From Candidatus Jordarchaeales archaeon (GTDB lineage Archaea > Asgardarchaeota > Jordiarchaeia > Jordiarchaeales > Freyrarchaeaceae): a DNA stretch of 32,000 nucleotides. The first letter of the stretch is position 1. The number at the start of each line of letters is the position of its first letter. Shown here in pieces: positions 5,548 through 27,448 of this stretch. Below the pieces are notes generated by a model that was given only the letters and a program-made list of their open reading frames with translations, searched no databases and was not told where the DNA came from. The translations under genes and the position numbers were made by a program. The stretch is taken from the NCBI GenBank assembly GCA_038889235.1, contig JAWAHN010000001.1:150001-182000 (forward strand), read 5' to 3'.

Positions 5548-8409
5548 CTATGCTCCGCCAGTCTCTATCTTGCCCAGCTCATCTATGAGCCTTTTAAGCT
5601 CCTTTTCAAGAGCGCGCAGCTTTTTCCTCTCTTTGTCGGTGAGTTCACCCCTCTCCTCCTTCACCCTGAACTCCTCGATCTTGGACCTTATCTCGTTAAA
5701 CCTCGCCCTAACCTCCTCAATCTTACCCGTTATTATCAGCTCTCTCACCCGTATCCTCGAGAGCGTGTCATCTATACTCGCAATCCTCTGCTCAAGCGTC
5801 TCCTTCTCACGGCTCAACTCAGAGATACGCCTCTCATACTCCTCAACACTCAAAACCCTCTTATCGAGAAGCTCGCCAGCCTTCTTAGCCTCCTTCTCCA
5901 GGGAAGCGATAGCAGTCATCAAACGACTCTTCTCTTTAATCAACCCTCTCATCCTTGCCTCGTGAAGCTTGAGAAGCCTAGGATAGTTGAAAACGCTGTT
6001 AAAAGCACGCCTGAAAACATCCCTGAACTCTGAGACGTCACCACCCTCCCACTTTCTGAGGGCTGAGCCAGCCTCAGCCTCCACAAGCCTCAGAAACTCG
6101 GCGAGTCTACCTCTAAGCCACTCAACCTCAAGCTTGCCAACCTTTCCAGCGACGCAGACGACCTCCAAGAGCTCGCTTTCAGCCCTCACAAACGTTCCAA
6201 TGCGCGTCTCAAGCACGTTGAACCCTCCAAGCCTCATCTCCTCAGCAAAGCTCCTCACCGCAGACACGAAGCCCGACACAAGCGTAGCATCAACATCCAG
6301 CGAGAGAACGTCAAAGCTCCACAACGGAAGACCCGTCTCCCTATGCGTAACCAACACGTTCTCGATAGAAGAGAGAGCCTTAACAGGAGCCCGCCACCTC
6401 CTGTAAACCCTACCACCAGCAACACCACCAGCAACCACAACGGCAGCCGAAACACCCAGAAGAGCAAGAAGGCGTGAAAACTGAACGGACTGAGCAGATT
6501 GGGCCATGAAAGCCAAAACCTCAGCAACCACCTCTAGAGGCAACGGCGGCGGACTATAAGAAAGTTCAACAATCCTATATGTCTCCTCTATGTGACTCCC
6601 CCACACAACCATCTTAAACTTGTAGAAGCCCCCGCCAGGCAGAGTAAACTCCACAAAGTAAGACCCATTCCTATAGTTATCTATCTTATCCAGCCCAACT
6701 TCGCCTCCATCAACATAGAAGAGTCTTACTTCGGCATTTGTAACAGGGAAGCCAGTGTCGTTCCTCGAAACGTAAAACAGTATCCTTACACGGTCCGTGC
6801 TCTCAAGCCTATCTATCCTAATAGAGCATGGAGCCCTATCCGAAATACTGAAGGAGGACTGCTCGATCAAGCCAACCTCTAAGCCACACTCCACGAGAAG
6901 ACGCACCACATAGCTCCCAGGCTCGACGCTCACGTTAAACCAGCCAACATCAACTGTGCCGCCGCTGAAAACCGTCTGGTTTTCAAAGACTTTACCTCCA
7001 TCTTTGAGGACCGTTAAATTCGCTTTCCCGCTCAGTGTAGCAGTTAGCGCGCCCCTCACGGTCAAGTTGTCACCGACAACCGCACCACTAACATTGACCG
7101 GGCTGAAGCCCTCATACAGAGAGTAAATCGTTAAGAAGGAAAGAACGTTCGGCCCTCTACACTGTATTATCCACGTGCCATTCGCGGCCTCAAAAAGCAA
7201 CATCCCAGGGGCGTTAACCAGATAGACCCTTTCTTCCCCCGTATCACTATTCAGAGCGCCCGGAGTAATGTTCCACCAGTCAGCCGGTATCGACACGTTG
7301 ATGAACATACCTGAACCAATGTCAGGGAAACCGTGATCTTCTGTGGCGTCAATGGTAACATTCCATTTTACTTCGCTAATCGCAACTGCATAAGTAGTAG
7401 TGGCATTTATTTTTCTGTAAAACACAGAATTGGCCTTAGAAACGTTGAAATAGACAATGTCATTCCAACTTGAAGACGCATCGAAATGCACTATCCCATC
7501 TTGAGACTCAAATGGACCATTAATAGTACAATTTCCAACTCCTCTCTTCCCAGGAAAATCAAGGACACTAGCACCCTCAATTTTCAACCCAACTTCACTA
7601 GGGTACGCAGGACCATAACTAAGAAAAACGTTCATTAGAAAGTCTCCTGGTATACTTAGGCCTACCTCAAAAGATCCATCTGTTAAATTTATGCGTCCAG
7701 CGTAAGCTTCACCGTCGTTATATGGCTCTTCATCGTCAACATAAAACCATTCAGCCCATATTCCATTGCTCTCAAGAACTACGAAAAAAGTATTATTTAC
7801 TGTATTAGAAGCGTTCAGCATTGCATTGTTAAGAGAAAGGTTCAACCATCCCCTCTTAAACGTAGCATTACTATAAGAGATTTTGTTTGTTACATTTTTA
7901 TCAGGAACTAGACGATTCAATGTAGTATTCATTGTAGCATTCATAATATATACAAGCAAAGCTCCACTATATTGTACCTGAAGATAACAAGATACATTAT
8001 ATACTATGGTATTAATAGTTGATACAGGGAAAGACATAGCGAGTGTTGTGTAAGTAAATGGAATATTCGTAAAAAGAGTTACTCCCAATGTTCCCTTTCT
8101 GTCACCTTGCTTTATTGTTGCGTTTGGTGCTGTTATGTTTGTTATTGTTAGTGTTGTGTTTAGTATTCCCCAACCTTGCGGGCATGATATGTTGAAGCCG
8201 CTTTCGGTGTCTGCCTGACCTGGTGATGTGATATTTCCCGTTATTATTAGTGTGGCGTTAGTGTCTGCTCCCTGCCCTGTTATTGGGGTGTTTTTTGTTG
8301 CGGGTGTTGTTGTCATTGATATGGGTGTGATTATGTTTTGGTTTTGGATTATTATGGGGGTTAGGAGGATTAGGGTTAGTATTATTATTGATATTGTTTT
8401 TAGTTTCAC
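5548..8409 (-). CDS. Single-pass surface receptor-like glycoprotein: signal peptide, ~600-aa extracellular region, TM helix, cytoplasmic longin/roadblock-like domain and coiled coil
   Basis: GTG start with a GGAGGAGGG RBS and signal peptide MKLKTISIIILTLILL. It has more than 25 N-x-S/T sequons, TM LLALLGVSAAVVVAGGVAGG, then IENVLVTHRETGLPLWSF...DATLVSGFVSAVRSFAEE (Asgard-type longin-like signature) and an E/K-rich C-terminal coiled coil. Confidence 0.85.
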   Translation of the reverse strand: MKLKTISIIILTLILLTPIIIQNQNIITPISMTTTPATKNTPITGQGADTNATLIITGNITSPGQADTESGFNISCPQGWGILNTTLTITNITAPNATIKQGDRKGTLGVTLFTNIPFTYTTLAMSFPVSTINTIVYNVSCYLQVQYSGALLVYIMNATMNTTLNRLVPDKNVTNKISYSNATFKRGWLNLSLNNAMLNASNTVNNTFFVVLESNGIWAEWFYVDDEEPYNDGEAYAGRINLTDGSFEVGLSIPGDFLMNVFLSYGPAYPSEVGLKIEGASVLDFPGKRGVGNCTINGPFESQDGIVHFDASSSWNDIVYFNVSKANSVFYRKINATTTYAVAISEVKWNVTIDATEDHGFPDIGSGMFINVSIPADWWNITPGALNSDTGEERVYLVNAPGMLLFEAANGTWIIQCRGPNVLSFLTIYSLYEGFSPVNVSGAVVGDNLTVRGALTATLSGKANLTVLKDGGKVFENQTVFSGGTVDVGWFNVSVEPGSYVVRLLVECGLEVGLIEQSSFSISDRAPCSIRIDRLESTDRVRILFYVSRNDTGFPVTNAEVRLFYVDGGEVGLDKIDNYRNGSYFVEFTLPGGGFYKFKMVVWGSHIEETYRIVELSYSPPPLPLEVVAEVLAFMAQSAQSVQFSRLLALLGVSAAVVVAGGVAGGRVYRRWRAPVKALSSIENVLVTHRETGLPLWSFDVLSLDVDATLVSGFVSAVRSFAEEMRLGGFNVLETRIGTFVRAESELLEVVCVAGKVGKLEVEWLRGRLAEFLRLVEAEAGSALRKWEGGDVSEFRDVFRRAFNSVFNYPRLLKLHEARMRGLIKEKSRLMTAIASLEKEAKKAGELLDKRVLSVEEYERRISELSREKETLEQRIASIDDTLSRIRVRELIITGKIEEVRARFNEIRSKIEEFRVKEERGELTDKERKKLRALEKELKRLIDELGKIETGGA
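8110..8220. repeat. 111-bp perfect direct repeat, copy 1 (inside the intact receptor gene)
   Basis: Identical base for base to 11073-11183. It encodes GQADTESGFNISCPQGWGILNTTLTITNITAPNATIK on the minus strand. Confidence 0.95.
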
Positions 8410-8482
8410 AAGCCCTCCTCCTTTGAAGATTTCGCAATGATAATTTGTACAAAATATTCTCTTTCTCTTCTCTTATAAATAG
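8410..8482 (-). promoter_or_regulatory. Putative TATA box and RBS of the intact receptor gene
   Basis: The minus strand has TATTTATAAG at about 8472-8481 and GGAGGAGGG just upstream of the GTG at 8409. Confidence 0.45.
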
Positions 8483-8621
8483 TTAATTAGTTCTTTCTTT
8501 TTCTGGCTTTTGGTTAGTGTGTTTAGTTTTGTTTGTTACTGCGTGGTTGTCGTTTGTTTTTGTCGTTAGGTTGTGTGGTTGTTTGTTTTGGGTGGGTTTC
8601 GTTTTTGAACTTACTTTTTTG

Positions 8622-11385
8622 TTATTTTGGTGGTGTTTGTTTTCTTTTTGTTAGTTTAGCTTGTTTAAGTTCGTCTAGTTCTTTTTTGAGGGTTTTTAGC
8701 TCTTTTCTTGTTTTTTGGAGTTCTTCTCTTGTTTTTGCGTCGCTTATTATGGTGAGTTCTCTTATTTTTGTTCTTGTGAGTGTGCTGTCGATTATTGCTA
8801 GTCTTTGTTGGATGAGTTCTTTTTCGTGGCTCAGTTCTGGTGTTTCTTTGATTGCTTTTAGTGTTCTGAGTAAGTGTTCTTTTTCTTTTATAAGTTTTAG
8901 GATTTTTGTTTGTTGGATTCTGGTTATTTTTTGGGGGTCGAAGAGGGTGTTGAAGGAGTGGTCGAGGATTTCCCTGAATTCTTCTGTGTCTCCTCCTTTC
9001 CATTTTCCGAGTGCTGGTCCAGCTTCGGCTTCCACGAGCCTTACGAGTTCTCTGAACCTTCTTTTGACCCACTCGACCTCAAGTCTGCCAGCTGCTCCTG
9101 TGATGCACAGTGCTTCTATGAGTTCGCCTTCAACTCTGATGAATTTTCCGATCCCGGGTTTCTAGGGTGTTGAATCCTCCGATCTTCGTTTCTTCAGCGA
9201 AGCTTCTTACGGCTGAGATGAATCCTGAGACGAGTGCTTCGTCTATTTCTAGGGAGAGGACGTCGAAGCTCCAGAGTGGAAGACTGGTTTCCTTGTGGAA
9301 GATTAGTATGTTTTCTATGGAGCTTAATGCTCTGGTGGGTACCCTCAGCCTCTTGTAGGCTCTTCTGCCGCTGATTCCGCCGGCTATCGCAGCGATTAAT
9401 GCGGCTCCCAGGATGGAGAACATGCGTGAGCTTTGCATGAATTGCAGGAGCTGTAGTGTGACGAGCATGAGTTCCAGTAAGTGGTCAGGAATCGGTGAGG
9501 GAGTATACTCGTAATAATAGACGCTCACCGTTTTTTTGCGTGGTGGCTATGCGGTTCCCCGACAAGGTTATGGTGAAGTTATATGGCCCTTCGCTGGGCG
9601 GCTTGAAGGCTATGAGGGTAGGTTCCGTTCTCGTAGTCGGTTACAGCTGCCTCGATCCGGCTTCCGTTAACGTAGAACACGTTCACGCTGGCGCCTGCAA
9701 CTGGGAACCCGTATCGCTCCTTGAAACGTATATCTTAATCTTCACGACGCTTACGCTCTCAACGTGAACCAAACTTACGAAACAGGATGCTTGAGCTGAG
9801 ACGCTGAAGTTCTTCTCTAGAAGCCCGACTTCTAGGCCACAGTAAACTAGCAGGCGGAGCACGTAGTTTCCGGGGTCTGCCACGCTCCATTCGAACGCGA
9901 CGTTGCCTCCGCTGAAGCCTGCCTGGTTTGTGAAGACGACACCTCCCGACTCGTTAAGTACTGTTAGGTTTGCCGTGCCAGTTAGCGCGGAGCTAAGCGT
10001 GCCGTTTATGGTTAAGTTGTCCCTGACGACAGCTCCGCCCACCTCCACCGGGCTCCAACCTTTGTAGAGCGCGTAAACTTTGAGCTGGAAGAGGACGTTT
10101 GCCCCCCACACTGGATAACCCATGTGCCGTTTGTGGCCTCGAACAGCAACATTCCAGAATCGTTACGCAGGTATGGCGAGTTGGATATAATGTTGCCGTT
10201 GATGACGTTGAGCGCTTCACCCGTCAGGTTCCACCAGTCTGCGGGAATTGAGACATTGATAAACTTACCTGCTCCAGCCTCTGGGAACCCCTGGTCTCCC
10301 GTGGTTTCAACCGTAACGTTCCAATACGCAGACTGGTCGGGCATTACGGAGTAGACTGTTGCTGCGTTCACTTGCTTGTAGAATGTTGAGTCCGCCTGAG
10401 TAACGTTGAAGTATACTGTGCTCGTGTAGTTCGTTGAAGCATTAAAGTGCACGTACCCGTCCTGCGATGGAGGCAAACGAGCTGTTATCATACACTTACC
10501 ATTTCCCCGCTGTCCTGGGACATCTTCAACAGTGAAGAAAGCCACGCCATCTAACCCAACTTTTAAGTCAACCTCACTCGGATAAACAAGCCCCGGTTCG
10601 ACCACGACGCGCATCTTGAAATCTACAGGCATATAATTCCATGGTTTAGACGGAGACTTAATGTAGGCGTATCCGTCATTGTTGGAGTCGTCTTCCACGT
10701 ATACCAGTAGGCAACCTTATCCACGCTTCCTTTAACTAGGACGAAGAACGTCTTATCATAAGTGTTGCTGGAGTTTAGAATGACCGAGGAAAAAGAGAAG
10801 TTTAGCCATCCTTCACTACCGGGAACTGGCAAATTGGCTTGAGCTAATACCGCCGATCCGGGTTCCGGAAATCCCGATGACTCATTAAACGATGCATTCG
10901 CAACGTAAAGAGTAATCATCTTTGCAACACTAAGAGTAATAGAACTAGAAGGATTTATGTATATTGAGATTCGGTTGAGGTTCACTGTGTCTGTTGGAAT
11001 TCTGAAGGACATTGCTAATAAGGTGTTGACACTAATCTCTTGGGAGCTTGTGTTCCCAGGTCTTTCTCTTGTCTTTATTGTTGCGTTTGGTGCTGTTATG
11101 TTTGTTATTGTTAGTGTTGTGTTTAGTATTCCCCAACCTTGCGGGCATGATATGTTGAAGCCGCTTTCGGTGTCTGCCTGACCGGGGCTTGTACTATTAC
11201 CGGTTATTATTAGCGTGGCATTAATGTCTGCTTCCTGACCCATTATGGTTGCAGTGTTTTTAGTGGAAAGTGTTGTTGCCGTGTGAAAAGTTGTTGGGTT
11301 TGGTGTGAAGATGGTTTAATGAAAAGAGGGTTAGTGCCAGAGTTAGTGTTAGCGTTAAGATAAGAGATTTTTATGTCTTTTTCAT
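8622..11385 (-). pseudogene. Frameshifted paralog of the 5548-8409 receptor (true pseudogene or consensus error)
   Basis: ORF fragments 10623-11243, 10012-10698, 9683-10123, 9130-9528 and 8622-9035 align colinearly with the intact paralog. The frame is restored by 1-bp indels at about 11320, 10700, 10102-10107, 9706-9707, 9616-9618, 9531-9537 and 9153-9155. The ATG at 11385 opens a signal peptide that has a TAA at codon 5. Confidence 0.85.
11073..11183. repeat. 111-bp perfect direct repeat, copy 2 (inside the frameshifted paralog)
   Basis: Identical to 8110-8220. Confidence 0.95.
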
Positions 11386-12639: not shown

Positions 12640-14457
12640 CTATGGAAGAAGTATGGCTTTTATGAATGTCTGGTAGAATTTTTTGTCGATTGAAAGCTCT
12701 ACGTAATGGATTTTCTCCAAAAGTTCTTCAGCCTCCTTTCTTACTTTTGTCGACTTTAGGGCCATTTTCGCCCCTCCAACCGCGGTGTCGCCTGCAAAGA
12801 CTATTTTTCCCGTTTCCACGTCTGGAAGCAAGCCTATGACCTTGGCGCTCTCGATGTCTATGTGTTTTCCGAAGGAGCCTGCAATGTATATTCGGTCGAG
12901 CTGCTGGGGGGTTATTCCCATGTTCTCCATAAGGGTCTGCCAGCCTGACCTTATAGCTGCTTTGGCGAGAAGGAACTCGTTGATATCCTTCTCGGTGACT
13001 GTTATGGGCCTCCCGCTTTCGGTTTCATCGCCCCACGCCACCACGAACACCGGCACTTTGTCGCGCACTATTCTCTCGTGTTCCACAATGAACTTGCCGT
13101 TCCTTCCTATGATCCCAGCCTTGTAAAGCTCTGCTATAAGCTCGATCATTCCGCTCCCACAGATTCCCTTGGGCCTCGCTCCTCCCACAACCTCGTAGTA
13201 GACTTTTGTTCCCTCCAAACGCACACTCTCTATGGCTCCAGTGACAGCTTTCATGCCGTGGGTTATGTGTGCTCCTTCAAACGCCGGTCCTGAGGGGGCG
13301 GAGCAGGCGAATATTCCATCCCGGTTTCCTATCATTATCTCGGTGTTCGTCCCAACATCTATGACCATGCTCATCTCGCTCTTCTTGTGAACTCCAGTGA
13401 TTAGTATGTCGGCTACAGCGTCCGCCCCTACGAAGCCAGCTATGATTGGAAGAGAAGTAACGCGGCCGTTTGGATTTATTTCGACGCCGAGCTCGTGCGC
13501 CGGGGCGCTTATGATGCCTCTCACCACGGGGACGAATGGGGAGACGCCGACATACTTTGGGCTTATGCCGAAGAGAAGATGGTGCATAACGGTGTTCCCG
13601 ACAACGACAGCCTCGTAAACCCTATCCTTCTTCACGCCAGCCCTACCGCAGACGTCTTCCACGAGACTGTTTATCGCCCCGACAACCACCCTTTGAAGCC
13701 TCTTCAGGTTGTCCTCACCTTTCGAAGCATAGGTAATCCTGGAGACCACATCCTCGCCGTACGCCACCTGGGGGTTCTCAACCCCACCTCTAGCAAGCGT
13801 CTCGCCGGAGTTAAGGTCGACGAGATGGCATACTATCTTTGAGGAGCCGACGTCCAAGCCGAGCCCATACTTCTCAGTCGACGTGTCTCCAGCCTCCACG
13901 TCCAGTAGCCTTCCATTCCAAAGAACCGCAGTCACACACCAGTCTGCTCCCCTCAAAACCTCTGGAAGCTTTCTAACCAGCTGGAGATCAACGCCAACAG
14001 GCATGAGGTGGGTATAGTGGATGAGCGCGTCTCTAAGTCTCTCAAAGTCAGGTCTGATATCGCTGAGGGAGGGCTTGGGAAGCCTTAATGGAACCTTGAC
14101 GACCGCAGGCTCCAAGGGAACCTCTTGTTCTATAGACACCTCTGCTATCTTCCTTGCAGCCATCCTGCTCTCAAGCGGAACTAGGACCGTTAAAGAACCC
14201 TCAGACACATATGCCTGACATGCAAGCCTATACCCTGAAGCTAGCTCCTCCCCGTTGAGGTATTTCAGCTCCACGCTTGTCGGGGGGTTGACCTCAGCTC
14301 TTCCACCGGTCAAAACCACCCTGCACTTGCCGCAAACCCCTTTCCCGCCGCAGTCAGACCTTAGACTGACGCCGGCGCTTCTAGCTATTTCGAGTATAGA
14401 TGCCGGCTTAGATCTAACTTTCCGCCCTTCGGGTTCAAAAGTCACCGTGACACTCAT
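12640..14457 (-). CDS. Corrinoid reductive activator (RACo/ASKHA family with N-terminal 2Fe-2S domain; MtoD/AcsV-like)
   Basis: CGGKGVCGKC...RLACQA 2Fe-2S motif, plus GLDVGSS, NPQVAYGEDVVSRI, IDVGTNTEI, SAPSGPAFEGA and GICGSG. Confidence 0.92.
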   Translation of the reverse strand: MSVTVTFEPEGRKVRSKPASILEIARSAGVSLRSDCGGKGVCGKCRVVLTGGRAEVNPPTSVELKYLNGEELASGYRLACQAYVSEGSLTVLVPLESRMAARKIAEVSIEQEVPLEPAVVKVPLRLPKPSLSDIRPDFERLRDALIHYTHLMPVGVDLQLVRKLPEVLRGADWCVTAVLWNGRLLDVEAGDTSTEKYGLGLDVGSSKIVCHLVDLNSGETLARGGVENPQVAYGEDVVSRITYASKGEDNLKRLQRVVVGAINSLVEDVCGRAGVKKDRVYEAVVVGNTVMHHLLFGISPKYVGVSPFVPVVRGIISAPAHELGVEINPNGRVTSLPIIAGFVGADAVADILITGVHKKSEMSMVIDVGTNTEIMIGNRDGIFACSAPSGPAFEGAHITHGMKAVTGAIESVRLEGTKVYYEVVGGARPKGICGSGMIELIAELYKAGIIGRNGKFIVEHERIVRDKVPVFVVAWGDETESGRPITVTEKDINEFLLAKAAIRSGWQTLMENMGITPQQLDRIYIAGSFGKHIDIESAKVIGLLPDVETGKIVFAGDTAVGGAKMALKSTKVRKEAEELLEKIHYVELSIDKKFYQTFIKAILLP

Positions 14458-14467
14458 CTTTTTAGCC

Positions 14468-15337
14468 TCAAAGCTCTATGAACTCTTTCATCCTGTAAGC
14501 GTACCTGTACGACGAGGTCACCGTGTAGACCGCTGGGAAAACATGCTTGCAGTCTTCTATCGGCCCATAGAGAACGAAGTTTGATCCTAGGATGAGCTGC
14601 ATGGTGTTCGCTATCACGGCAGCGGACTTCGCCGCCTCCTTGCCCAAGCGGTCTTTCAGTCCACTCCACGTGGCGACGGCGTTGTGGGCTCCGGAGCCGC
14701 AAGGTAGACCGTACCTCCTCTTTATCTCAACCGCCGCTATGGCTGCAGGGGTGAGGCTTGGAACGTCTATGACGAAGGTGTCCACTAGGGGTTTTGTAAC
14801 TCCGGCTGCCTCGGCTTTCGGCAGCAGCTTCTCTAGGACTTCAACCCTTGCCTTGCTGCTCATCACGTTCCTCGTGTAGGTTAGCAGTATCGCTGCTTTG
14901 ACACCGCTCTCCTCTAAAGCTGCAAACTCAAAGTCCTTTGACTCCGCCGAAAGGGAGTTGTAAATCATCCTATTCTCTGCTCCCATCTCTTTCGCGAACT
15001 TGAGGGCTTGAATTTTCACTTCGGGCGTTGGTGAGTCGAGGAGGAACGGCTTATCCGTGGCGTCGACGATGAACTCCATGTACCTTCTCGCCGCCTCCTC
15101 CGTTGAAGCCACCACGTCTACTAGCCCGGGTAACCCTGTTTTGTCGCTGAGCTCCTCCATCTCCCTCAGCAGCTTCTCAGCTCCTCCTTTATTGTAAACG
15201 CCCCTCTTTTCGTCTTCAACAATCTTGTGCTTGGCATAAAACATGCTCCCCACGAGGACTATGGGGTTTTCTCCAGGCTGCCCGCCAAACTTGACTCCAG
15301 CAACGTCAAAAACCTTCTGCTCCGTCTTGAAGCGCAA
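14468..15337 (-). CDS. MtrH-family methyl-corrinoid:tetrahydropterin methyltransferase (MtoA/MtgA-like)
   Basis: KFGGQPGENPIVLVGSMFYAKHKIV, IYNSL and GLPCGSGAHNA. The TTG start lies 5 nt after the MFS stop. Confidence 0.88.
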   Translation of the reverse strand: MRFKTEQKVFDVAGVKFGGQPGENPIVLVGSMFYAKHKIVEDEKRGVYNKGGAEKLLREMEELSDKTGLPGLVDVVASTEEAARRYMEFIVDATDKPFLLDSPTPEVKIQALKFAKEMGAENRMIYNSLSAESKDFEFAALEESGVKAAILLTYTRNVMSSKARVEVLEKLLPKAEAAGVTKPLVDTFVIDVPSLTPAAIAAVEIKRRYGLPCGSGAHNAVATWSGLKDRLGKEAAKSAAVIANTMQLILGSNFVLYGPIEDCKHVFPAVYTVTSSYRYAYRMKEFIEL

Positions 15338-15341
15338 CACT

Positions 15342-16784
15342 TCAACCACCACCCCTCAAAAGTTTCCTGGCGCCTAACGCGACAATGAGCGTTGACGCCA
15401 GGTGGAGAACGGTAAAGAGCAGTATTGAACCGAAATATGTTCCGGTGGCGTCCCTTATAAAGGCTCCAACATAGGGCCCTATGATGGACGAGAAAGCCAC
15501 CGACGAGTTCAATATCACGGTTATCCTGCCAGCTGCTTTTCCGCCGAAGAAGTGTGGAACTGCTGCGAAGTGGACTGTCGGCTCTCCTCCCAGGGCGAAG
15601 TACACGGCGACTCCTAGGATGAGAAGCAGCGCCGAGTTAGTGTAGCCAAGGTAGAACGCTATGCAAGCTACGCCGGCAAGCGTGTAGACTATTGGCAAGG
15701 TTCTTAGGGGGCCGCCTATCCTATCGTTGAGGTTGCCCCAGATTAGTGCTCCAAGGGCGTTTGCAACAGCCGTTACGCTCATGAATAGTGGAATTATATT
15801 GTTTGAGATGTAATTTGTGACGTAGCTGGCGAGAGCTGCCAGTTGGCTTCCCGTGAAGTATCGCATGTAGCTTACCAGGTTGGCGTCTATCCCCATGCTC
15901 TTAGTTAAGCCCTCAACTACTATTGTGGCGACGTTGAGTATGAAGAGGAACCACCCTATCGCCGTCGCCACCATTATTGTGAAGAGGATCCAGAAGCGTC
16001 TATCTCTGACAGCTTCTTTGAGGGAATATTCGGCTAACGTGGCGGCCGTTCTTTCTTCGGCATTGTTGATGCTGCCAGCGCTCCACCCTTCAGGCGGGTT
16101 TTTCCACAAGGCGACGCCGACTCCATATGCTAGGACAAAGACGATTATTCCCAAAGCTATGAATGCGTCAGATAAGCCCTTTCTAAGAGGGAGGTACAAG
16201 GTTAACGTAATCAGGTGCTGCGGTGTGACTGTGGAGGCCACTATGGTTGAAGCTAGGAGCGGCGCGTTGGAGGTGCTTCTCGACAGTATGATGTAGGTTA
16301 GGAGTGGAGCTAGCAATAGTGGGGAGAGGTTTTGACCCGCGATCGTTACACCGAAGGCTCTGCCGGGTCTATCGACAAACCATTTACCTATAAGCCCCGG
16401 GAAGGTTCCGATGAACAATGCGACGCCAGCGCCTATTAGGAATGAGCCAAGGTACCAGTATGTTTTCGCGTGTTCCCAGAAGTATAAGCTGAACATGTGC
16501 GATACGATGAGCGCACCGGCTAGGAAGACTAAACCTGATGCTGCCATCGGTATCTTTGGCCCTAAGCGGTCTACGGCAAACCCTGCTGGAACCTGGAAGA
16601 TGAGTAGGGCAACACCCATAAGTGAGGCTGAGAGGGTTACGGGGGCTACTTCACTTAAGCCGTAGATTTGCAGGATGTAAGGGTAGAACTGGCTCCATAT
16701 GAAGGCTACAACGATGAACATGGCAAGGGCCGCTGCGGAAAGCGGGTAGAACCATCTGTAGCGTCCACTAGCGTTGGGCTTCAT
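15342..16784 (-). CDS. MFS transporter (OFA-like)
   Basis: About 12 hydrophobic helices, with MFS loop motifs GFAVDRLGPK, KWFVDRPGRAFG and GNLNDRIGG. Confidence 0.88.
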   Translation of the reverse strand: MKPNASGRYRWFYPLSAAALAMFIVVAFIWSQFYPYILQIYGLSEVAPVTLSASLMGVALLIFQVPAGFAVDRLGPKIPMAASGLVFLAGALIVSHMFSLYFWEHAKTYWYLGSFLIGAGVALFIGTFPGLIGKWFVDRPGRAFGVTIAGQNLSPLLLAPLLTYIILSRSTSNAPLLASTIVASTVTPQHLITLTLYLPLRKGLSDAFIALGIIVFVLAYGVGVALWKNPPEGWSAGSINNAEERTAATLAEYSLKEAVRDRRFWILFTIMVATAIGWFLFILNVATIVVEGLTKSMGIDANLVSYMRYFTGSQLAALASYVTNYISNNIIPLFMSVTAVANALGALIWGNLNDRIGGPLRTLPIVYTLAGVACIAFYLGYTNSALLLILGVAVYFALGGEPTVHFAAVPHFFGGKAAGRITVILNSSVAFSSIIGPYVGAFIRDATGTYFGSILLFTVLHLASTLIVALGARKLLRGGG

Positions 16785-16837
16785 AGTTAACTCCTCCTTG
16801 AATAAAAAAGTTGGAAGTTAAAGTGGAATTGTGTGGG

Positions 16838-18097
16838 TTAATATCTGCCGTACTTTTTCACTGCTTCAACCATTGCTTTCAAGTTTTCTGGCTTCACGTC
16901 TCTCGAGAGGCCGCCGTCGACTCCCGGCCAGACCATGAATCCGCCCTCTTTTACGTCTTCGAGGAGTTTCTTCATGAATTCCTCGACTTTCTGCGGTGTC
17001 CCGCCTATGAGTAGAGCGTTTGGTGGGCCGCTCACGAGTATCACGTGGTCACCTGCTACCTCTCTAACCTTTCTAGGGTCAGTCTTTTCGAAGACTCCGA
17101 TAACCTTCTTCTTTGGAAGCTCGCGCAGGGTTTCTAGGTGTGCATCATGCCTTCCTTCGAAAAGGACGAAGGGGGTCTGCCCCATCTTGATTACTTCGTT
17201 AAAAACTTTTTTCAGGTAGGGCCAGTAGAACTCGTTGTAAAGCTTCGGGTTCAGGTACTCGTTAAGGTGTAGTGGGAAGAAGCATTGAACTATGTCTGTT
17301 CCGAGCTGCTTCTTGACCTCCGGTGGTATTGCACCGGATATTGCAGCGGTCTTTACGAACACCGGTGTTAGGGCCTCGACGGCCGCCTTAACCTTGTCGG
17401 GGTATCTGTAGAGGTCAAGCACTATGTTCTTTACGTCCCTCAGAAAGTCACCGATGAAGTCGAGTGGGGCATATGACCACGACATAGGTATTGCCGGATA
17501 GCCGAGACCTATGAGGCCGGCTATGAGGCTGTTGAAAAACGCGTTGTAACGTTCAACCTCCATTCCAAACTTCGCAAGTGTGGCGTTGTATTCGGGTGAG
17601 CCGACATCCCTTAACCCTTCGCACATTCTCGGCAGGATCACACGGTGTATGAAGTCCAGCGGGTTCTCAGCCAGCTGCTCGTATTCTTCGACCTTCATCA
17701 ACTCCTTTCCTATAAACTGAGGGTGAGCGTTTTCCGCAAGCTCTATTCCGGGCCACCTTGTGAAAACGTCCCTGAGAACTTCATGGAACTTCCCTACCAG
17801 GAACCTTGAGGAGATCCCTATTTCGGGCTGTTTTTCCATGAACGCCGTGCACAGGATCATTCCTTCCAGTCCGGCTATTACAGCCCAGGAGTCGAAGTCA
17901 AAGTCCCTCGCTACTTTGAGGGCTGCTTCCTTGCACTTGTTGTAGTCGAAGAGCACTTCACGCGTGGTGTAGCCTGCGTAGGTTCCATGCCACACGGCGG
18001 TCGCAGCGTATATCGGCACTCTGTCGGGCTCTTTGCCCTTCATCACAGCCTCAAGCCTTTCAAGCCTCTCCTTGTAGAGTTGCATGGGATCCACCAT
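16838..18097 (-). CDS. URO-D/CmuA-like substrate:corrinoid methyltransferase (MtoB-like role)
   Basis: N-terminal EPDRVPI, APLDFIGDFLR, FFPLH...LNPKLYNEFYWPYLKK, and C-terminal GGF...LSRDVKPENLKAMVEAVKKYG. It lies directly downstream of a corrinoid protein. Confidence 0.8.
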   Translation of the reverse strand: MVDPMQLYKERLERLEAVMKGKEPDRVPIYAATAVWHGTYAGYTTREVLFDYNKCKEAALKVARDFDFDSWAVIAGLEGMILCTAFMEKQPEIGISSRFLVGKFHEVLRDVFTRWPGIELAENAHPQFIGKELMKVEEYEQLAENPLDFIHRVILPRMCEGLRDVGSPEYNATLAKFGMEVERYNAFFNSLIAGLIGLGYPAIPMSWSYAPLDFIGDFLRDVKNIVLDLYRYPDKVKAAVEALTPVFVKTAAISGAIPPEVKKQLGTDIVQCFFPLHLNEYLNPKLYNEFYWPYLKKVFNEVIKMGQTPFVLFEGRHDAHLETLRELPKKKVIGVFEKTDPRKVREVAGDHVILVSGPPNALLIGGTPQKVEEFMKKLLEDVKEGGFMVWPGVDGGLSRDVKPENLKAMVEAVKKYGRY

Positions 18098-18098
18098 T

Positions 18099-18731
18099 TC
18101 ACGCCACCCCCGCCAACTTCTTTATCTTACGCACTCCGACCGCTGCATCATCTGCCCAGTCATCGGCTCCGGTGTACGCTTTTACCTCCTCGCTCGTTCT
18201 CCCTCCGCCGATGATCACTTTTACTTTATCTCTTAGCCCAGCGGCCTTTATGGCTTCAATCGTCTTCTTCATGGACTCGATAGCTTCGGTGAGCAGACCG
18301 CTTAGGCCGACGACTTTAGGGTTATACTTTTTGATGGCGTCAACGAAAGCCTGCGGTGGCTGATCGACTCCTAGGTTAATCACTTCGAAACCCTCTGCTT
18401 CGAGAAGTGCTGTAACTATGCTCAGCCCTATGTCGTGGACGTCGCCCTCAACAGTCCCCAAAACTATTCTACCCTTGCTCACGCCTTTTTTCGCCCCTAT
18501 AACTGGCTTTAGGAGCTCCATGATTTGTTTAAGAATTTCGCCGGCCATTATTAGGTCTGAAACGAAGTATTGTCCTTCTTCGAACCGTTTGCCTATAATG
18601 TCCGTTGCCTTTCTAACGTCGTCGAGTATAACGAAGGGGTCCTCTTTAGACTCTATTCGTTTCTTGACGAGTTCGAGGGTCTTGGCTTCGTTGAGATCTG
18701 CAAGAGCATTTACAAATTCCTCGCCCGCCAT
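18099..18731 (-). CDS. Corrinoid (B12-binding) methyl-carrier protein (MtoC/MttC-like)
   Basis: N-terminal B12 cap domain, GDVHDIG (DxHxxG), VGLSGLL and IIGGG. Confidence 0.93.
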   Translation of the reverse strand: MAGEEFVNALADLNEAKTLELVKKRIESKEDPFVILDDVRKATDIIGKRFEEGQYFVSDLIMAGEILKQIMELLKPVIGAKKGVSKGRIVLGTVEGDVHDIGLSIVTALLEAEGFEVINLGVDQPPQAFVDAIKKYNPKVVGLSGLLTEAIESMKKTIEAIKAAGLRDKVKVIIGGGRTSEEVKAYTGADDWADDAAVGVRKIKKLAGVA

Positions 18732-18779: not shown

Positions 18780-18814
18780 TTTATGAACTACTTCATAAAA
18801 GGATAATTTATCCT
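18780..18814. promoter_or_regulatory. Two abutting palindromes upstream of the corrinoid operon
   Basis: tttatgaa-ctac-ttcataaa (18780-18799) and aggataa-t-ttatcct (18800-18814), next to an AT-rich TATA-like tract. Confidence 0.6.
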
Positions 18815-18827
18815 AATAGGCACTTTT

Positions 18828-19436
18828 TTACCTTTCTTTAACCCTTATGAAAATTTTCTCTGTCGTCGAGTCCATGTCGGCGTTTATGCCCAAAGCGTCA
18901 AATATGCATTTCACTATGAGCTTCGTTATTACAAGTATTTCGGGAGGGGTCTGGAAAACGAAGTCCGCTGCACCCACTTTGGTCAGTGTTCCAGCCCCTG
19001 CGAAGTCCATCATCCAGAGGACGTCTTGAGCCTTCTTAACCGGGCTTTCGTCGTCTCTCCAGCGGTAGGCATACTCGAAGAGGCGGGCTGTGCTCTGGAT
19101 TGCCATCAAAAACTCTTCGTCTTTTTCAAGCTCGCTTGGGTCAACTTTTTCTTGAAGCTTTTTTACCAAAACCCTGTAAAGTTCCCTATCGATAACCGCA
19201 AACTGTCTTTCTTCAACTCCGTGAATGTGCAGGGCGAGTCTGCCTATGTCGCTGAAGTACTTCCTGTAGTCTCCTATCCCAGCTTTCTCGGTTGCCTTAA
19301 CCAAGTTGTGGTAGAGTTGGAGGGCCTCCCTAAAAACCTGGCTTACACTCTTCCCAGTCTTCTCTCTTAGATAATCGACTAGTTTAATGTCAAAGTCGTC
19401 CAGTGCAACAGTAATTCTATGAAAAATTTTAGGCAA
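18828..19436 (-). CDS. CopG/ribbon-helix-helix regulator with a C-terminal putative ligand-binding domain
   Basis: N-terminal RITVALDDFDIKLVDYLREKTGKSVSQVFREAL (RHH pattern) followed by an ~150-aa extension. It lies directly upstream of the operon. Confidence 0.7.
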   Translation of the reverse strand: MPKIFHRITVALDDFDIKLVDYLREKTGKSVSQVFREALQLYHNLVKATEKAGIGDYRKYFSDIGRLALHIHGVEERQFAVIDRELYRVLVKKLQEKVDPSELEKDEEFLMAIQSTARLFEYAYRWRDDESPVKKAQDVLWMMDFAGAGTLTKVGAADFVFQTPPEILVITKLIVKCIFDALGINADMDSTTEKIFIRVKER

Positions 19437-19483: not shown

Positions 19484-19603
19484 CAATACACTTTTTTACC
19501 TTTCTCGATTCCTTCACCTCTTGCGGTAAAATTGTAGGCGTTTATCTTAAAAGTAGCGCTGAGATCGCACGACACCTCTCTACTCCTTGAAAAAGCGCTC
19601 TTT

Positions 19604-20017
19604 TCACGGTATGAAGAGAGTTCTGACGCCGTATTTTGCTGCGACGCCCGCCTGTGCTCTGTCGCTGGTTACAAGTTCACCCAGCTTTTCAGCTAAGGCT
19701 ATGTAGAGAGAATCATAGATGGAGACAGTCTCTGCTAAGGAGATCGTATATGCTCTCTCCAGGTAATTAATCTCAGGCTCCAGTATTATGACACTTCCTT
19801 TCACGAGCTCCATTAACGCCTTGAACAGTAACTGTGCACGTGCTTCATCGATTGCTTTCACTACCTTAGCATGCTTCCATAGGACGTTGGAAACCTCTTT
19901 TACTAAGAGGTCCACTGAGTGGAGGGGGCTTCTAGTTTCCAGGAGGCTTCTCACGTTGGTCCATCCTTTTTCTTTAAGAAGGTACTTGGCTAGGGATGAG
20001 GCGTCAATGGCTATCAC
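19604..20017 (-). CDS. vapC: PIN-domain toxin
   Basis: IAIDASSLAKYLLKE, EVSNVLWK and SIYDSLYIALAE acidic PIN motifs. It overlaps the antitoxin stop. Confidence 0.9.
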   Translation of the reverse strand: MIAIDASSLAKYLLKEKGWTNVRSLLETRSPLHSVDLLVKEVSNVLWKHAKVVKAIDEARAQLLFKALMELVKGSVIILEPEINYLERAYTISLAETVSIYDSLYIALAEKLGELVTSDRAQAGVAAKYGVRTLFIP

Positions 20018-20234
20018 GGTCTTCCCTCAGAAGCTTAGCCACAGTTCCCTGCGGGAGCTCGGGTAAGTCTTCAATCATTTTGTCTATTTCTTTCAAAAGC
20101 CGCTTCTTTTCCAACTCTGCGACCTTAGCCTGCACAAACCTTCTGACCTCATCGCTCCAGTTGACTTCACTTTTAAAGGCATCCATTTTTTCCTTCAGCT
20201 TTCTCGGAATCCTGAAGGAAACTGTTACGCTCAA
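20004..20234 (-). CDS. vapB: RHH antitoxin
   Basis: MSVTVSFRIPRKLKEKMD...VNWSDEVRRFV, ending LLREDRD. TTG start with a GGGGTG RBS; 14-nt overlap with vapC. Confidence 0.85.
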   Translation of the reverse strand: MSVTVSFRIPRKLKEKMDAFKSEVNWSDEVRRFVQAKVAELEKKRLLKEIDKMIEDLPELPQGTVAKLLREDRDSH

Positions 20235-20260
20235 TAAAAACACCCCACGCTGAATACTCA

Positions 20261-20304
20261 TAATACAAAATTTGTAATACAAATAATAAGTTTTTTGTAT
20301 TACA
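20261..20304. promoter_or_regulatory. Probable vapBC operator (inverted and direct repeats)
   Basis: tgtaatacaaa (20273-20283) and tttgtattaca (20294-20304) form a perfect 11-bp inverted repeat. A third half-site, taatacaaa, lies at 20261-20269. Confidence 0.65.
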
Positions 20305-20400
20305 TTATACATAAGGTGGATGCGTCATTTTTATCGGGATGCTCACTCTAATAGCGGTGGTGAGGTTGCTTTTTCGTTGAAGGCTGTTTTGGAGAGTGGT

Positions 20401-21351: not shown

Positions 21352-23223
21352 TTAGAGTATTCCTGTTTTTGCTAGTTTTTCTTCCACGTTTTTTAGTCCC
21401 AGTTTTCTCAGCGTTTCTCTTTTCGGGATTCCGTGCTCGTTCCATCCCAGAGCTTCATAGTACTCCTTTCTCTTTTGGTTGAATGCCTCTGTTAGTGTTT
21501 TTCCTTTGTGTGGTCCTGATGGTAGGGGTTGGTTGAATCTTGGGGGGTTTGTGTCGTCTTTTTCCGTCCACTTGGCGTCTGGTCCTCCTAGTAGGAGGGC
21601 TGCCCGCTGTATGTGTATTATTCTGAGGGCTTTTTCGTTGCACCATTCTTCTGGGGTTAGCTTCCACCCTGTTACTGCCTCATAGAACTGGAATATTTCC
21701 TGTTGTGATATTGGAAACGTGTTGAAGGAGCAGTAGACTGCTGAATCGTGGAATATGGATAAGGGTTCGCCGAACCTGTGGTTTAGGGGGAGGCGGGCGA
21801 CCGATGTATGGTCTCCGCACTGGACTGAGCAGGCGTATGATATTTCCTCCACTAGGAAGTCTGCTCCGCTTCTTACTCCATGTGCTCCGACGGCGACTCC
21901 CTTAACTTGGACGGCGTACTCTAGCACTTCTTCGGGTTTGAGTTTTTTGATTTCGCTTATCTTTATGGCTGCCCTGTATGTTCCTTCTGCAAGCACATCT
22001 CCTATGCCTTCCCTGTAGGCGGTCATTCTTGCCAGCTTGGCGAAGGCTTTCGTGTCACCCCACTTGAGCTCGAAACCCAGGTCTTCTTTTCCAATTATTC
22101 CTTTTTCGAATAGTTCGGCTGCAAAGCCGAGCACGTTGCCGGCCTGTATGGCGCACAGGCCAAGCTCGTTCATGAGGTATGAAAGGAATATGTTGTCTCT
22201 CGGGGAGAATATTCCGAGGTTTGTACCGTTATAGGCTTGGTGCTCGTAGTCTGGAGGGTCGCATATTGCTCCTTCGAATTCCCCCTCACGTATGAAGGAT
22301 ATTTTCATGCACGTGGTTGGGCAGTTGAAGTCCCCCCAGTATGGTTTAACCCAGTACTTCGAAAACTCTTCGACCGAGTAACCTTTATCGTCATGCCACT
22401 CCTCTTGCCAGTTCCTTATGGGCTCAGCACTCATCAACGCTCCGACGTTGTATCCCCCGCTCGCCGTCCCGCTCCTCCTGAAGCCAGCGTTCTGGTAACA
22501 ATCTCTGCAAATGGACTCCATGAGCTCAACAACCCTCTTCATGTCTGCCGGCTCCGGAAGAGGACCTGTCCCCTTCACCACTATGGCTTTAAGGTTCTTT
22601 GAACCCATGACCGCGCCGTAGCCACCGTATCCCGCAGCGTGGCTTCTCTTCTCCATGACGCAGGCAAACCTGACGCGCCTCTCACCAGCTGGACCTATGT
22701 AGAGGACTGCAGGCTCCTTTAGCTCCCCGAGCTCCGGGTGGACCCCTTTAACTAGGCGACTTCCTTCCTTCACAAGCGTTCTAAGGGTTTCAGTTCCATC
22801 CATCCCCCAGACGTGTCCAGCGTCTTTGATTTCTACATGGTCGTCGCAGATGAACACATAAGACGGCTTCTCGGCAACCCCAGTAATTATCATACCATCG
22901 TAGCCTGCACACTTGAGCTCCACTCCGGCTTCGCCAGAAACAGTCGACCCTATTATGCCGTTGCTCAGCGGAGACTTCCCGGAAACACAAAGCTTCGAGC
23001 CGGGAAAGTAACCTGTCAGGGGGCCTGTGAGAACCGTGAGAATGTTCTCTGGGCCTAATGGGTCGACTTCCTCCCAACGTGACCCAAGCCTGTCCCAGAG
23101 GATCTTAGCTGCAAGCCCCCTGCCGCCTATGTATTCCCTCAGAACAGACTCTTCAAGCCTAACTTCTTTGACCCCGCCGCTCTCCAAGTCGACCTCTAAA
23201 ATTTTACCAGCATACCCTCTCAA
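21352..23223 (-). CDS. Tungsten aldehyde:ferredoxin oxidoreductase family, WOR5-like large subunit
   Basis: GGRGLAAKILW, HAAGYGGYGAVMGSKNLKA, EPIRNWQEE, AHGVRSG and GDHTS. The WOR5 subfamily call rests on recalled similarity to Pyrococcus furiosus WOR5. The start is placed at TTG 23223 (GGTG RBS). Confidence 0.88.
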   Translation of the reverse strand: MRGYAGKILEVDLESGGVKEVRLEESVLREYIGGRGLAAKILWDRLGSRWEEVDPLGPENILTVLTGPLTGYFPGSKLCVSGKSPLSNGIIGSTVSGEAGVELKCAGYDGMIITGVAEKPSYVFICDDHVEIKDAGHVWGMDGTETLRTLVKEGSRLVKGVHPELGELKEPAVLYIGPAGERRVRFACVMEKRSHAAGYGGYGAVMGSKNLKAIVVKGTGPLPEPADMKRVVELMESICRDCYQNAGFRRSGTASGGYNVGALMSAEPIRNWQEEWHDDKGYSVEEFSKYWVKPYWGDFNCPTTCMKISFIREGEFEGAICDPPDYEHQAYNGTNLGIFSPRDNIFLSYLMNELGLCAIQAGNVLGFAAELFEKGIIGKEDLGFELKWGDTKAFAKLARMTAYREGIGDVLAEGTYRAAIKISEIKKLKPEEVLEYAVQVKGVAVGAHGVRSGADFLVEEISYACSVQCGDHTSVARLPLNHRFGEPLSIFHDSAVYCSFNTFPISQQEIFQFYEAVTGWKLTPEEWCNEKALRIIHIQRAALLLGGPDAKWTEKDDTNPPRFNQPLPSGPHKGKTLTEAFNQKRKEYYEALGWNEHGIPKRETLRKLGLKNVEEKLAKTGIL

Positions 23224-23359
23224 CTCGAAACACCAAGCAGAAGTTAGAAACAACACCCTAGAAGAAATTTTCCTCGCCTGCGAAAGATCGGTCAGATCCA
23301 GGTAGCGCCCTACAAGCAAGATCTAGGGCCCGGGGTAGCCTGACGGGGCTTAGGAAGGT

Positions 23360-24313: not shown

Positions 24314-24628
24314 GATTTACGTCTTCCCCTATGTGCTCTTGGGTGAAAATTTGCAGTTTTATGGTTATAAATGTGATTCGTGTTTTGTGTTTTCTGCTTG
24401 TCTTTCCTCTTTTCACCTTTCGCCTGTTTTCGGATAAAATGTACTGTTCTGTTTCCGCGTCGATTGCCGCCGTTGACGTCTCTGTCGTTGCTTTTGGCTT
24501 TGAAGAGTTTTGTTTTAGTTAGCTTTTTCTTGGGTGTTTTTGTATGACTTGGCTGCCGAAGGGGGTTTGCTTTTCTTGGGGGAAGTTTTTTAGTTGCGTT
24601 TTTCCTCTTATTGTTAAGGGGTGGTTTT

Positions 24629-25630: not shown

Positions 25631-25926
25631 CCATGAAAAAAGGGGGGAGGATGACGCGAAACAGCATAATTTAACCCTTAAAGGCAGCATTCCTTCCAGC
25701 TTAACAGTGCGGGCTTGTGTGTCCGGGCGTCCAGCAGGCTTTAGCTCTCGAGGGGGGCCGCAAGGCAAAATTTCCATTGAAAGGCTCACACCAGAAGGCT
25801 AAAATTTACCGGCATGAAGCTTTCAAAAAACAATCCAATATCTTGTTTTTGCTGATGCTCGGTTTTAGAAAGGCTTTTCAGACGGTTTCCTCCTTTCTAG
25901 TCTATTTGCGAGGGAAGGTGGTTGTC

Positions 25927-27444: not shown

Positions 27445-27448
27445 CGTT

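Follow-up and report, generated by a model that had tools for sequence, protein, structure and literature searches.

A probable mto-type O-demethylase operon with a conserved candidate operator in one genus of Jordarchaeales

In the assembly GCA_038889235.1 of a Candidatus Jordarchaeales archaeon, a stretch of 32,000 nucleotides (nt) on contig JAWAHN010000001.1 (positions 150,001 to 182,000 of the forward strand, in the following called the window) contains a cluster of five genes together with a gene for an RHH regulator. As judged from homology, gene order and phylogeny, these genes very probably represent a corrinoid-dependent O-demethylase operon of the Mto type with methoxylated aromatic compounds as substrates, which one genus of Jordarchaeales acquired as a block from the Mto lineage of the Halobacteriota. 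Lignin-derived aromatic methoxy groups form a large C1 pool in anoxic settings, and among archaea its use has, to our knowledge, been demonstrated in Methermicoccus and Archaeoglobus only. The enzyme system as such and its presence in other Asgard archaea, with homologues in Loki- and Helarchaeota, are already known (PMC8359953). The cluster is a known system in a new host lineage, and the conserved candidate operator is the one feature that was not found in the literature searched, in which there was also no link of Jordarchaeia to methoxylated compounds or to Mto.

The gene cluster and its products

The five genes occupy positions 12640-18731 on the minus strand, where they are co-directional and tightly packed according to the listing of open reading frames (ORFs), with adjoining genes separated by anything from an 11-nt overlap to 53 nt. 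The first one is mtoC (18099-18731), encoding the corrinoid (cobalamin) methyl-carrier protein of 210 amino acids (aa) with the B12-binding domains PF02310 (B12-binding) and PF02607 (B12-binding_2), and it is separated by 1 nt only from mtoB (16838-18097), which encodes the substrate-specific methyltransferase I (O-demethylase), a 419-aa protein of the URO-D superfamily (PF01208). Then follow the gene of an MFS transporter (15342-16784; 480 aa, PF07690), which is the orthologue of AF_0008, and mtoA (14468-15352), which starts with GTG, shares 11 nt with the MFS gene, and encodes the MtrH-family methylcorrinoid:pterin methyltransferase II (294 aa; PF02007, 335 bits; 360 bits against the NCBIfam model NF002142, above its cut-off of 287). 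The last gene is mtoD (12640-14457; 605 aa), whose product is of the RACo type, with Fer2, RACo_linker, Raco_middle and RACo_C_ter (ASKHA) domains, and serves for the ATP-dependent reductive activation of the corrinoid protein. The Pfam and NCBIfam assignments of all five proteins are unambiguous, the cobalamin-histidine motif of MtoC is intact (DVHDIG at residue 97, of the DxHxxG type), and the 2Fe-2S cysteines C36, C42, C45 and C80 of MtoD are conserved. An earlier note on this DNA, made from the letters alone, had described tightly packed, co-directional genes for a corrinoid carrier, a URO-D-like methyltransferase, an MFS transporter, an MtrH-like methyltransferase and a RACo activator, and this description is borne out by the ORFs as well as by Pfam and NCBIfam. 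The functional unit exceeds 12640-18731, as the RHH (CopG-type) regulator gene at 18828-19436 on the minus strand (202 aa; PF01402 at residues 7-43; TTG start after GGAGGG) and a conserved palindrome at 18781-18798 also belong to it.

Orthology with characterised Mto systems

The order RHH-mtoC-mtoB-MFS-mtoA-mtoD is that of Archaeoglobus fulgidus, in which an RHH gene lies upstream of AF_0006-AF_0010, and in Methermicoccus shengliensis the RHH gene is followed by mtoC, mtoB1, mtoB2, a small ORF, mtoA, mtoD, MatE and an MFS gene. Every protein of the cluster has its best match in the counterpart from A. fulgidus or M. shengliensis, at 47-77% identity. MtoC is 77% and 74% identical to the respective proteins of the two species, MtoA 60% and 62%, and MtoD 59% and 63%; MtoB shares 69% with AF_0007 and 68% with MtoB2 of M. 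shengliensis, and the RHH protein 50% and 53% with the products of the genes directly upstream of mtoC. The MFS protein is 47% identical to AF_0008 and has no homologue in M. shengliensis. In a large protein database, MtoB matches congeners at 83-85%, Archaeoglobaceae at 67-73% and M. shengliensis at 68%, the latter protein bearing the NCBI name 'methoxylated aromatic compound--corrinoid protein Co-methyltransferase', and its bacterial homologues are only 43-47% identical to it. Within the genome itself, the Mto proteins are 28-47% identical to their paralogues (MtoC 35-46% to the other corrinoid proteins, MtoA 37-42% to three other MtrH paralogues, MtoD 47% to a second RACo), and their resemblance to the proteins of A. 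fulgidus and M. shengliensis is much greater.

For these counterparts experimental evidence is available. AF_0006-13 was the most strongly induced cluster of A. fulgidus on 2-methoxyphenol (Welte et al. 2021, PMC8359953). With the M. shengliensis proteins it could be shown in vitro that MtoB uses 2-methoxybenzoate and trimethoxybenzoate for the methylation of Co(I)-MtoC and is inactive with methanol and trimethylamine, that MtoA demethylates CH3-Co(III)-MtoC with tetrahydrofolate (H4F), used as a stand-in for tetrahydromethanopterin (H4MPT), but not with coenzyme M (CoM), and that MtoD reactivates Co(II)-MtoC (Kurth et al. 2021, PMC8630106). Given the gene order and the identities to these assayed or induced Mto proteins, the window cluster is therefore a direct orthologue of the characterised system. 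The earlier note had recognised the Mto component set, and this assignment was not only confirmed but can be put more strongly than merely Mto-like.

The substrate of MtoB

Methoxylated aromatics are the likeliest substrate, because MtoB is 68-69% identical to the characterised enzymes and groups inside the MtoB clade (see below). The earlier note had allowed for methoxy-aromatics, methyl-sulfur compounds or methylated sugars, and among these the first is favoured by the identity and the clade, while nothing supports the other two. The same note had counted a lack of metal ligands against a methyltransferase function of the URO-D-like protein. At the aligned position of the HxC zinc motif (H-x-C ... 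C) of the MtaA/MtbA/MtsA/CmuA-type methyltransferases, MtoB has the sequence EGRHDAH without a cysteine, and the same is found in MtoB of A. fulgidus and M. shengliensis. The HxC ligands are indeed missing, but because the characterised MtoB proteins do not possess them either, their absence is uninformative and not diagnostic. The MtaA and CmuA models of NCBIfam score the window MtoB far below their cut-offs, a paralogue at C1:67 kb (C1 being the contig that contains the window) keeps an HSC zinc motif, and MtvB and CdmB have been reported to be zinc-free (PMC13222342).

The transporter encoded between mtoB and mtoA is of the oxalate/formate antiporter and monocarboxylate transporter type, with SfMCT and OFA matches below the NCBIfam cut-offs, and it contains two genus-specific inserts relative to AF_0008. 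Its homologues in the large protein database (22 at E<=1e-20) come nearly all from Jordarchaeales or Archaeoglobi.

It could be asked whether the Mto architecture serves another natural donor, such as methanol, methylated thiols, methylated sugars or other methyl ethers, after a shift of specificity in the Jordarchaeales branch, and we consider this unlikely. Such a shift would fit the position of the Jordarchaeales MtoB proteins on their own branch within the crown clade and the monocarboxylate/OFA type of the transporter with its lineage-specific inserts, and MtoB paralogues in single genomes, such as MtoB1 and MtoB2 or the five of Methanomicrobium sp. W14, suggest that specificity diversifies. 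However, methanol and trimethylamine are not used by the M. shengliensis enzyme (PMC8630106), the HxC zinc motif of the MtaA/MtsA type that is used in methanol and thiol chemistry is absent from the window MtoB, and aryl methyl ethers are substrates of every characterised member of the clade. Moreover, other donors have their own MttB-, MtmB- and MtaA-like modules in this genome, which contains at least three further corrinoid modules. The one at C3:143000-150500 (on a second contig, C3) comprises an MtrH protein, a corrinoid protein, an MttB-family protein of 501 aa and the second RACo, the one at C3:120000-125000 an MtrH protein, a corrinoid protein and an MtmB-family protein (451 aa, without an in-frame stop), and the one at C1:66400-69800 a corrinoid protein, the URO-D-family protein with the HSC zinc motif, and an MFS protein.

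In Methanomicrobium sp. W14 (JAGGMM010000003.1), four tandem mtoC-mtoB pairs, a fifth mtoB and two MFS genes are found within 15 kb, which is a striking local amplification of a substrate-specific module.

The methyl acceptor and the C1 pathway of the host

The genome of 2.14 Mb is 95% complete and consists of 8 contigs, and the cluster lies on contig C1 (1.11 Mb), of which the window represents C1:150001-182000. The genome encodes beta-RFAP synthase as a marker of H4MPT biosynthesis, the H4MPT branch with FwdA, Ftr, Mch, Mtd and Mer and the CdhC subunit of the CO dehydrogenase/acetyl-CoA synthase (CODH/ACS), all of these above their cut-offs, and domains of an ADP-forming acetyl-CoA synthetase, including the ATP-grasp domain. 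McrA, DsrA and formyl-H4F synthetase were not found in this 95% complete genome. The pterin-linked C1 or Wood-Ljungdahl genes, on which the earlier note had made its proposal depend, are accordingly present. Mer, Mch, FwdA and RFAP synthase are also encoded on contig C1, and because the cluster shares this contig with genes of the one-carbon pathway and because its flanks are syntenic in two sister genomes, a binning error is excluded.

The methyl acceptor had been given in the earlier note as either H4MPT or H4F; a pterin-linked pathway was found as expected, and H4MPT is the likelier of the two. A small chance is left for H4F, given that it supported the activity of M. shengliensis MtoA in vitro, that FolD (240.9 bits) and a MetF-like protein (72.5 bits) are encoded in the genome, and that the bacterial MtrH-family protein MtgA uses H4F, with MtoA reaching 242 bits against the model NF047990, which is below its cut-off. 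Against this stand the formyl-H4F synthetase that was not found in the genome, the complete H4MPT methyl branch with beta-RFAP synthase, the fact that the best NCBIfam model for MtoA is the H4MPT MtrH family, which scores above its cut-off, and the origin of the closest MtoA orthologues from H4MPT-using organisms. The MetF-like gene (MTHFR family) is located about 3 kb from mer (C1:293682-298560) and FolD elsewhere on C1; together and without formyl-H4F synthetase, they may constitute a hybrid or partial folate-type branch beside the H4MPT pathway.

The corrinoid modules of the genome together suggest a broad methylotrophic repertoire that feeds H4MPT directly and not through CoM. In the published model for Jordarchaeia, methylamines are used by way of CoM and MtrAH (Sun et al. 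2021, PMC9723677). The MtrH-like genes look like direct methylcorrinoid:H4MPT transferases, which would revise the picture of methyl use given in PMC9723677.

The RHH regulator and its candidate operator

The spacer between the RHH gene and mtoC contains the perfect palindrome TTATGAACTACTTCATAA, that is TTATGAA-N4-TTCATAA, at 18781-18798. It lies upstream of mtoC at a distance of 50 nt from the ATG, and a TATA-like A/T-rich run comes after it. The motif has one exact match in the 2.14 Mb genome, compared to 0.011 expected. With at most one mismatch it also occurs 66-83 nt upstream of mtoC in both other Jordarchaeales, in four Archaeoglobi, and in the loci of A. fulgidus and M. shengliensis. 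Among 44 loci, the palindrome is present in all seven that bear an RHH gene and in one of the 37 that do not, although on six of these 37 contigs the region upstream of mtoB is missing, and as the loci are related and not independent, this co-occurrence is to be taken as support and not as a statistic. We regard the palindrome as a candidate operator on which the RHH regulator would act, and it would have moved together with the operon. A regulator or an operator for methoxydotrophy has not been described in the literature searched.

The C-terminal part of the RHH protein (about 155 aa, residues 45-202) gave no Pfam match even at E=10, and an Atlas feature search with this domain returned only CopG-like archaeal clusters and a weak AF_0136_C lead.

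A second exact palindrome is found in both characterised loci. In A. fulgidus it is located downstream of mtoB and before the MFS gene (locus L051:9266-9283), and in M. shengliensis after mtoB2 and before mtoA (locus L053:9265-9282), which implies a putative internal regulated promoter in these two organisms. A second palindrome inside the window operon was considered and rejected, as the only match there, at 14476-14493, has three mismatches and is within chance expectation. Around the regulator gene there is also a 26-nt direct repeat (18821-18846 and 19489-19514) with the exact 16-nt core GAAAGGTAAAAAAGTG on the minus strand. One of its copies is located upstream of the RHH gene, about 55 nt from the start, and the second at the 3' end of this gene. 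This 16-nt repeat is not conserved in the sister genomes.

Origin of the operon by transfer

The phylogeny of MtoB was inferred from 93 proteins, and a concatenated tree of MtoC, MtoB, MtoA and MtoD was based on 1523 columns; CdmB, MtvB and OdmB are not among the tree sequences, and an Asgard CdmB-like protein was included as proxy. In the MtoB tree, the window protein and two congeners fall inside a clade with an SH-aLRT support of 99 that includes AF_0007, MtoB1 and MtoB2, and the other 51 members of this clade stem from Archaeoglobi, Methermicoccus, Methanomicrobiales or unnamed metagenome contigs. As to the phylogeny with MtoB that the earlier note had proposed as a check, the placement in the MtoB clade has strong support. 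Other Asgard MtoB homologues are found elsewhere in the tree, with Thermoproteota, Bathyarchaeia and Baldrarchaeia. The concatenated tree recovers the same crown clade with a support of 100/100, and therein the Jordarchaeales are sister to Methanomicrobiales (99/97). A search for MtoB in 301 Asgard genomes returned congeners at 85-94% identity, and all others beyond the same order at 38-50%. The nearest non-congeneric MtoB is from Archaeoglobaceae (73%), and the best Asgard match of MtoD outside the genus is at 49%. Together, this speaks for an operon that was transferred as a whole from the Mto lineage of the Halobacteriota.

Synteny extends over the cluster and its two flanks in both sister genomes of the genus. 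No tRNA genes were found in the window, no integrase marks an island around the cluster, and convincing flanking direct or inverted repeats are likewise missing there, so that no island boundary can be defined. From the genus-wide synteny and the lack of tRNA or repeat boundaries it follows that the transfer would predate the radiation of the genus.

Vertical inheritance from an Asgard or deeper archaeal ancestor, with loss elsewhere, is highly unlikely. In its favour, MtoB, MtoC and MtoD homologues are widespread in Asgard archaea, Thermoproteota and Bathyarchaeia, any transfer was not very recent as judged from the synteny of cluster and flanks, the island marks just mentioned are missing, and GC is raised only slightly in the cluster (51.3% compared to 48.2% for the genome). 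On the other hand, a topology with all Jordarchaeales homologues in one clade fails an approximately unbiased (AU) test, with a log-likelihood difference of 197 (p 4.6e-51), the tested group having been defined by taxonomy but named after inspection of the tree. The crown clade otherwise consists of Halobacteriota, Asgard homologues of the linked MFS gene at E<=1e-30 are confined to the genus among 200 genomes, and the order of six genes is common to different phyla together with a cis element. In the sister family of the same order, three of the six genomes have an MtoB match, which is only 52-53% identical and occurs only in a pair of corrinoid-protein and methyltransferase genes.

Naming a donor lineage within the Halobacteriota was attempted and rejected, as the single-gene tree forms a polytomy, and the concatenated tree and the gene order are in conflict. 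In Methanomicrobiales, the loci have the order mtoA-mtoD-mtoC-mtoB, and the RHH gene, the MFS gene and the palindrome are absent from them.

Counter-evidence

Several points weigh against an O-demethylase operon for methoxylated aromatics that was taken over from Halobacteriota together with its regulation. The donor signals conflict, since the concatenated tree indicates Methanomicrobiales, whereas order, RHH gene, MFS gene and palindrome are of the Archaeoglobi type. What speaks for the palindrome as an operator is conservation and co-occurrence only, and in one Archaeoglobaceae locus (L004) the palindrome is present although no RHH gene could be detected within 8 kb. The transporter is not of the aromatic-acid:H+ symporter type and has two lineage-specific inserts. 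The case for H4MPT as acceptor is indirect, as M. shengliensis MtoA was assayed only with H4F, and FolD and a MetF-like protein are encoded in the genome. Inside the crown clade, the Jordarchaeales MtoB proteins form a lineage of their own, with a divergence of about 31% from every MtoB that has been tested, and similarity alone cannot give the substrate specificity in this methyltransferase family, as exemplified by CdmB, a close relative of the O-demethylases that uses chloromethane and not methoxy-aromatics (PMC13222342).

That the cluster itself encodes a Cdm-type haloalkane (chloromethane) dehalogenase/methyltransferase instead of an O-demethylase is extremely unlikely, because although in the PDB the 419-aa protein matches CdmB best (9rui, E 8.7e-72, 245.7 bits), and although CdmB homologues occur in Asgardarchaeota (Sigynarchaeales) and relatives of the O-demethylases can differ in substrate (PMC13222342), the genuine MtoB2 of M. 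shengliensis scores about equally to 9rui (218.6 bits), a CdmB-like protein of the Asgard family f9 reaches 479 bits and stands in another clade of the MtoB tree on a fully supported branch with a length of 1.18, methyltransferase II of the window is of the MtrH/MtoA and not of the CdmA type, and mto loci have the same gene order, regulator and palindrome. A CdmB-like methyltransferase I is present in 13 of the 68 sampled genomes of family f9, which agrees with the Sigynarchaeales report.

Proposed mechanism and significance

Returning to the reading as an mto operon, we think that the cluster would catalyze the O-demethylation of methoxylated aromatics and be induced by them, by analogy with the A. 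fulgidus and M. shengliensis orthologues. The single steps are deduced from these characterised orthologues, to which the orthology itself is established. The MFS transporter would import the methoxy-aromatic and may also export the hydroxylated product. MtoB would then transfer the O-methyl group to the Co(I) of MtoC, yielding CH3-Co(III)-MtoC and the phenol, from where MtoA would pass the methyl group to a pterin, most likely H4MPT, and MtoC that was oxidised to Co(II) would be re-reduced by MtoD with its 2Fe-2S and ASKHA ATPase domains. CH3-H4MPT would in part be oxidised via Mer, Mtd, Mch, Ftr and Fwd, and the remainder would be converted by CODH/ACS to acetyl-CoA and by the ADP-forming acetyl-CoA synthetase to acetate. 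In sum, this would be methoxydotrophic acetogenesis without methane formation and without sulfate reduction, and an acetogenic disproportionation of methoxy-derived methyl groups via CH3-H4MPT appears to us the most economical account of the physiology. The RHH protein probably controls the operon via the palindrome just upstream of the mtoC promoter.

We lean, with some reserve, towards the still wider view that one genus of hot-spring Jordarchaeales, and hence of Asgard archaea, is a methoxydotrophic acetogen by uptake of a complete, self-regulating mto operon from Halobacteriota, including a ligand-sensing RHH protein and its operator. If this is true, it would be the clearest example to date of an experimentally validated lignin-methoxy pathway with a direct orthologue in an Asgard archaeon, and an operator conserved across three archaeal classes would provide a testable regulator-operator pair for archaeal methoxydotrophy. 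With the orthologue on a megabase contig beside a complete H4MPT Wood-Ljungdahl pathway, methoxydotrophy is likely extended to Jordarchaeia. A whole catabolic operon would have moved between phyla together with a cis-regulatory site, and the conserved palindrome offers a simple experimental route into the regulation of archaeal methoxydotrophy.

Other features of the window

Between the mto regulator gene and a gene for an aldehyde:ferredoxin oxidoreductase (AFOR), a PIN-domain protein (19604-20017, minus strand) and a small overlapping upstream ORF (20004-20312, minus strand) are encoded, which likely form a VapBC-type toxin-antitoxin pair. The AFOR gene (AFOR_N and AFOR_C domains; 21352-23319, minus strand) is found 2 kb upstream of the mto cluster, in synteny with Ca. 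Jordarchaeum sp.; its product could act on aromatic aldehydes such as vanillin. Farther on, at 24611-28102 on the plus strand, genes for a D-2-hydroxyacid dehydrogenase, a FGGY-family sugar kinase and a class II aldolase stand in a row and represent a small sugar-catabolism cluster of the fuculose/rhamnulose type. On the other side, an ORF of 953 aa (5548-8409, minus strand) has no Pfam match, and an adjoining 936-aa protein (2-2812, plus strand) contains CarboxypepD_reg and Ig-like domains; both products may be surface proteins. In the region 7001-9000, GC goes down to 37-42%, with a very strong AT skew (-0.53 at 8001-9000).

Comparison with known systems

The closest solved structure to the window MtoB belongs to CdmBCA of Acetobacterium dehalogenans (9rui, PMC13222342), and this system likewise combines a zinc-free TIM-barrel methyltransferase I with a corrinoid-protein partner. 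It differs in its haloalkane substrates and in its methyltransferase II, CdmA, which is MtqA-like and uses H4F, and the CdmB-like Asgard clade is distant from the window MtoB. MtvABC of Moorella thermoacetica and the Odm/Vdm systems of A. dehalogenans share with the window a methyltransferase I, a corrinoid protein, a methyltransferase II and an activating enzyme, their methyltransferase I belongs to the same branch of the URO-D superfamily, and the end use is acetogenic (PMC8630106, PMC13222342). The bacterial methyltransferase II, however, is MtvA-like and H4F-dependent, whereas that of the window belongs to the MtrH family.

With M. shengliensis, the window has in common the arrangement RHH-mtoC-mtoB...mtoA-mtoD at 53-74% identity, the MtrH-type MtoA, and the palindrome upstream of mtoC, which there has one mismatch. 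Unlike the window, M. shengliensis possesses two tandem mtoB genes and no MFS gene between mtoB and mtoA, the genes for its transporters, MatE and an MFS protein that is not homologous, lie downstream, and as a methanogen it routes the methyl groups to methane. The A. fulgidus system differs by two sets of corrinoid-protein, methyltransferase and MFS genes and two palindromes, compared to one each in the window, and the window MFS protein is about 60 aa longer. Moreover, the Asgard host has no match to DsrA, and because this marker of sulfate reduction was not found, acetate is the likely end product and not sulfate-coupled CO2. With these differences, the two systems are alike in their order, which is identical also for the RHH gene upstream and the MFS gene inside the operon, in protein sequences of 47-77% identity, in the same palindrome upstream of mtoC, and in a non-methanogenic host that uses H4MPT.

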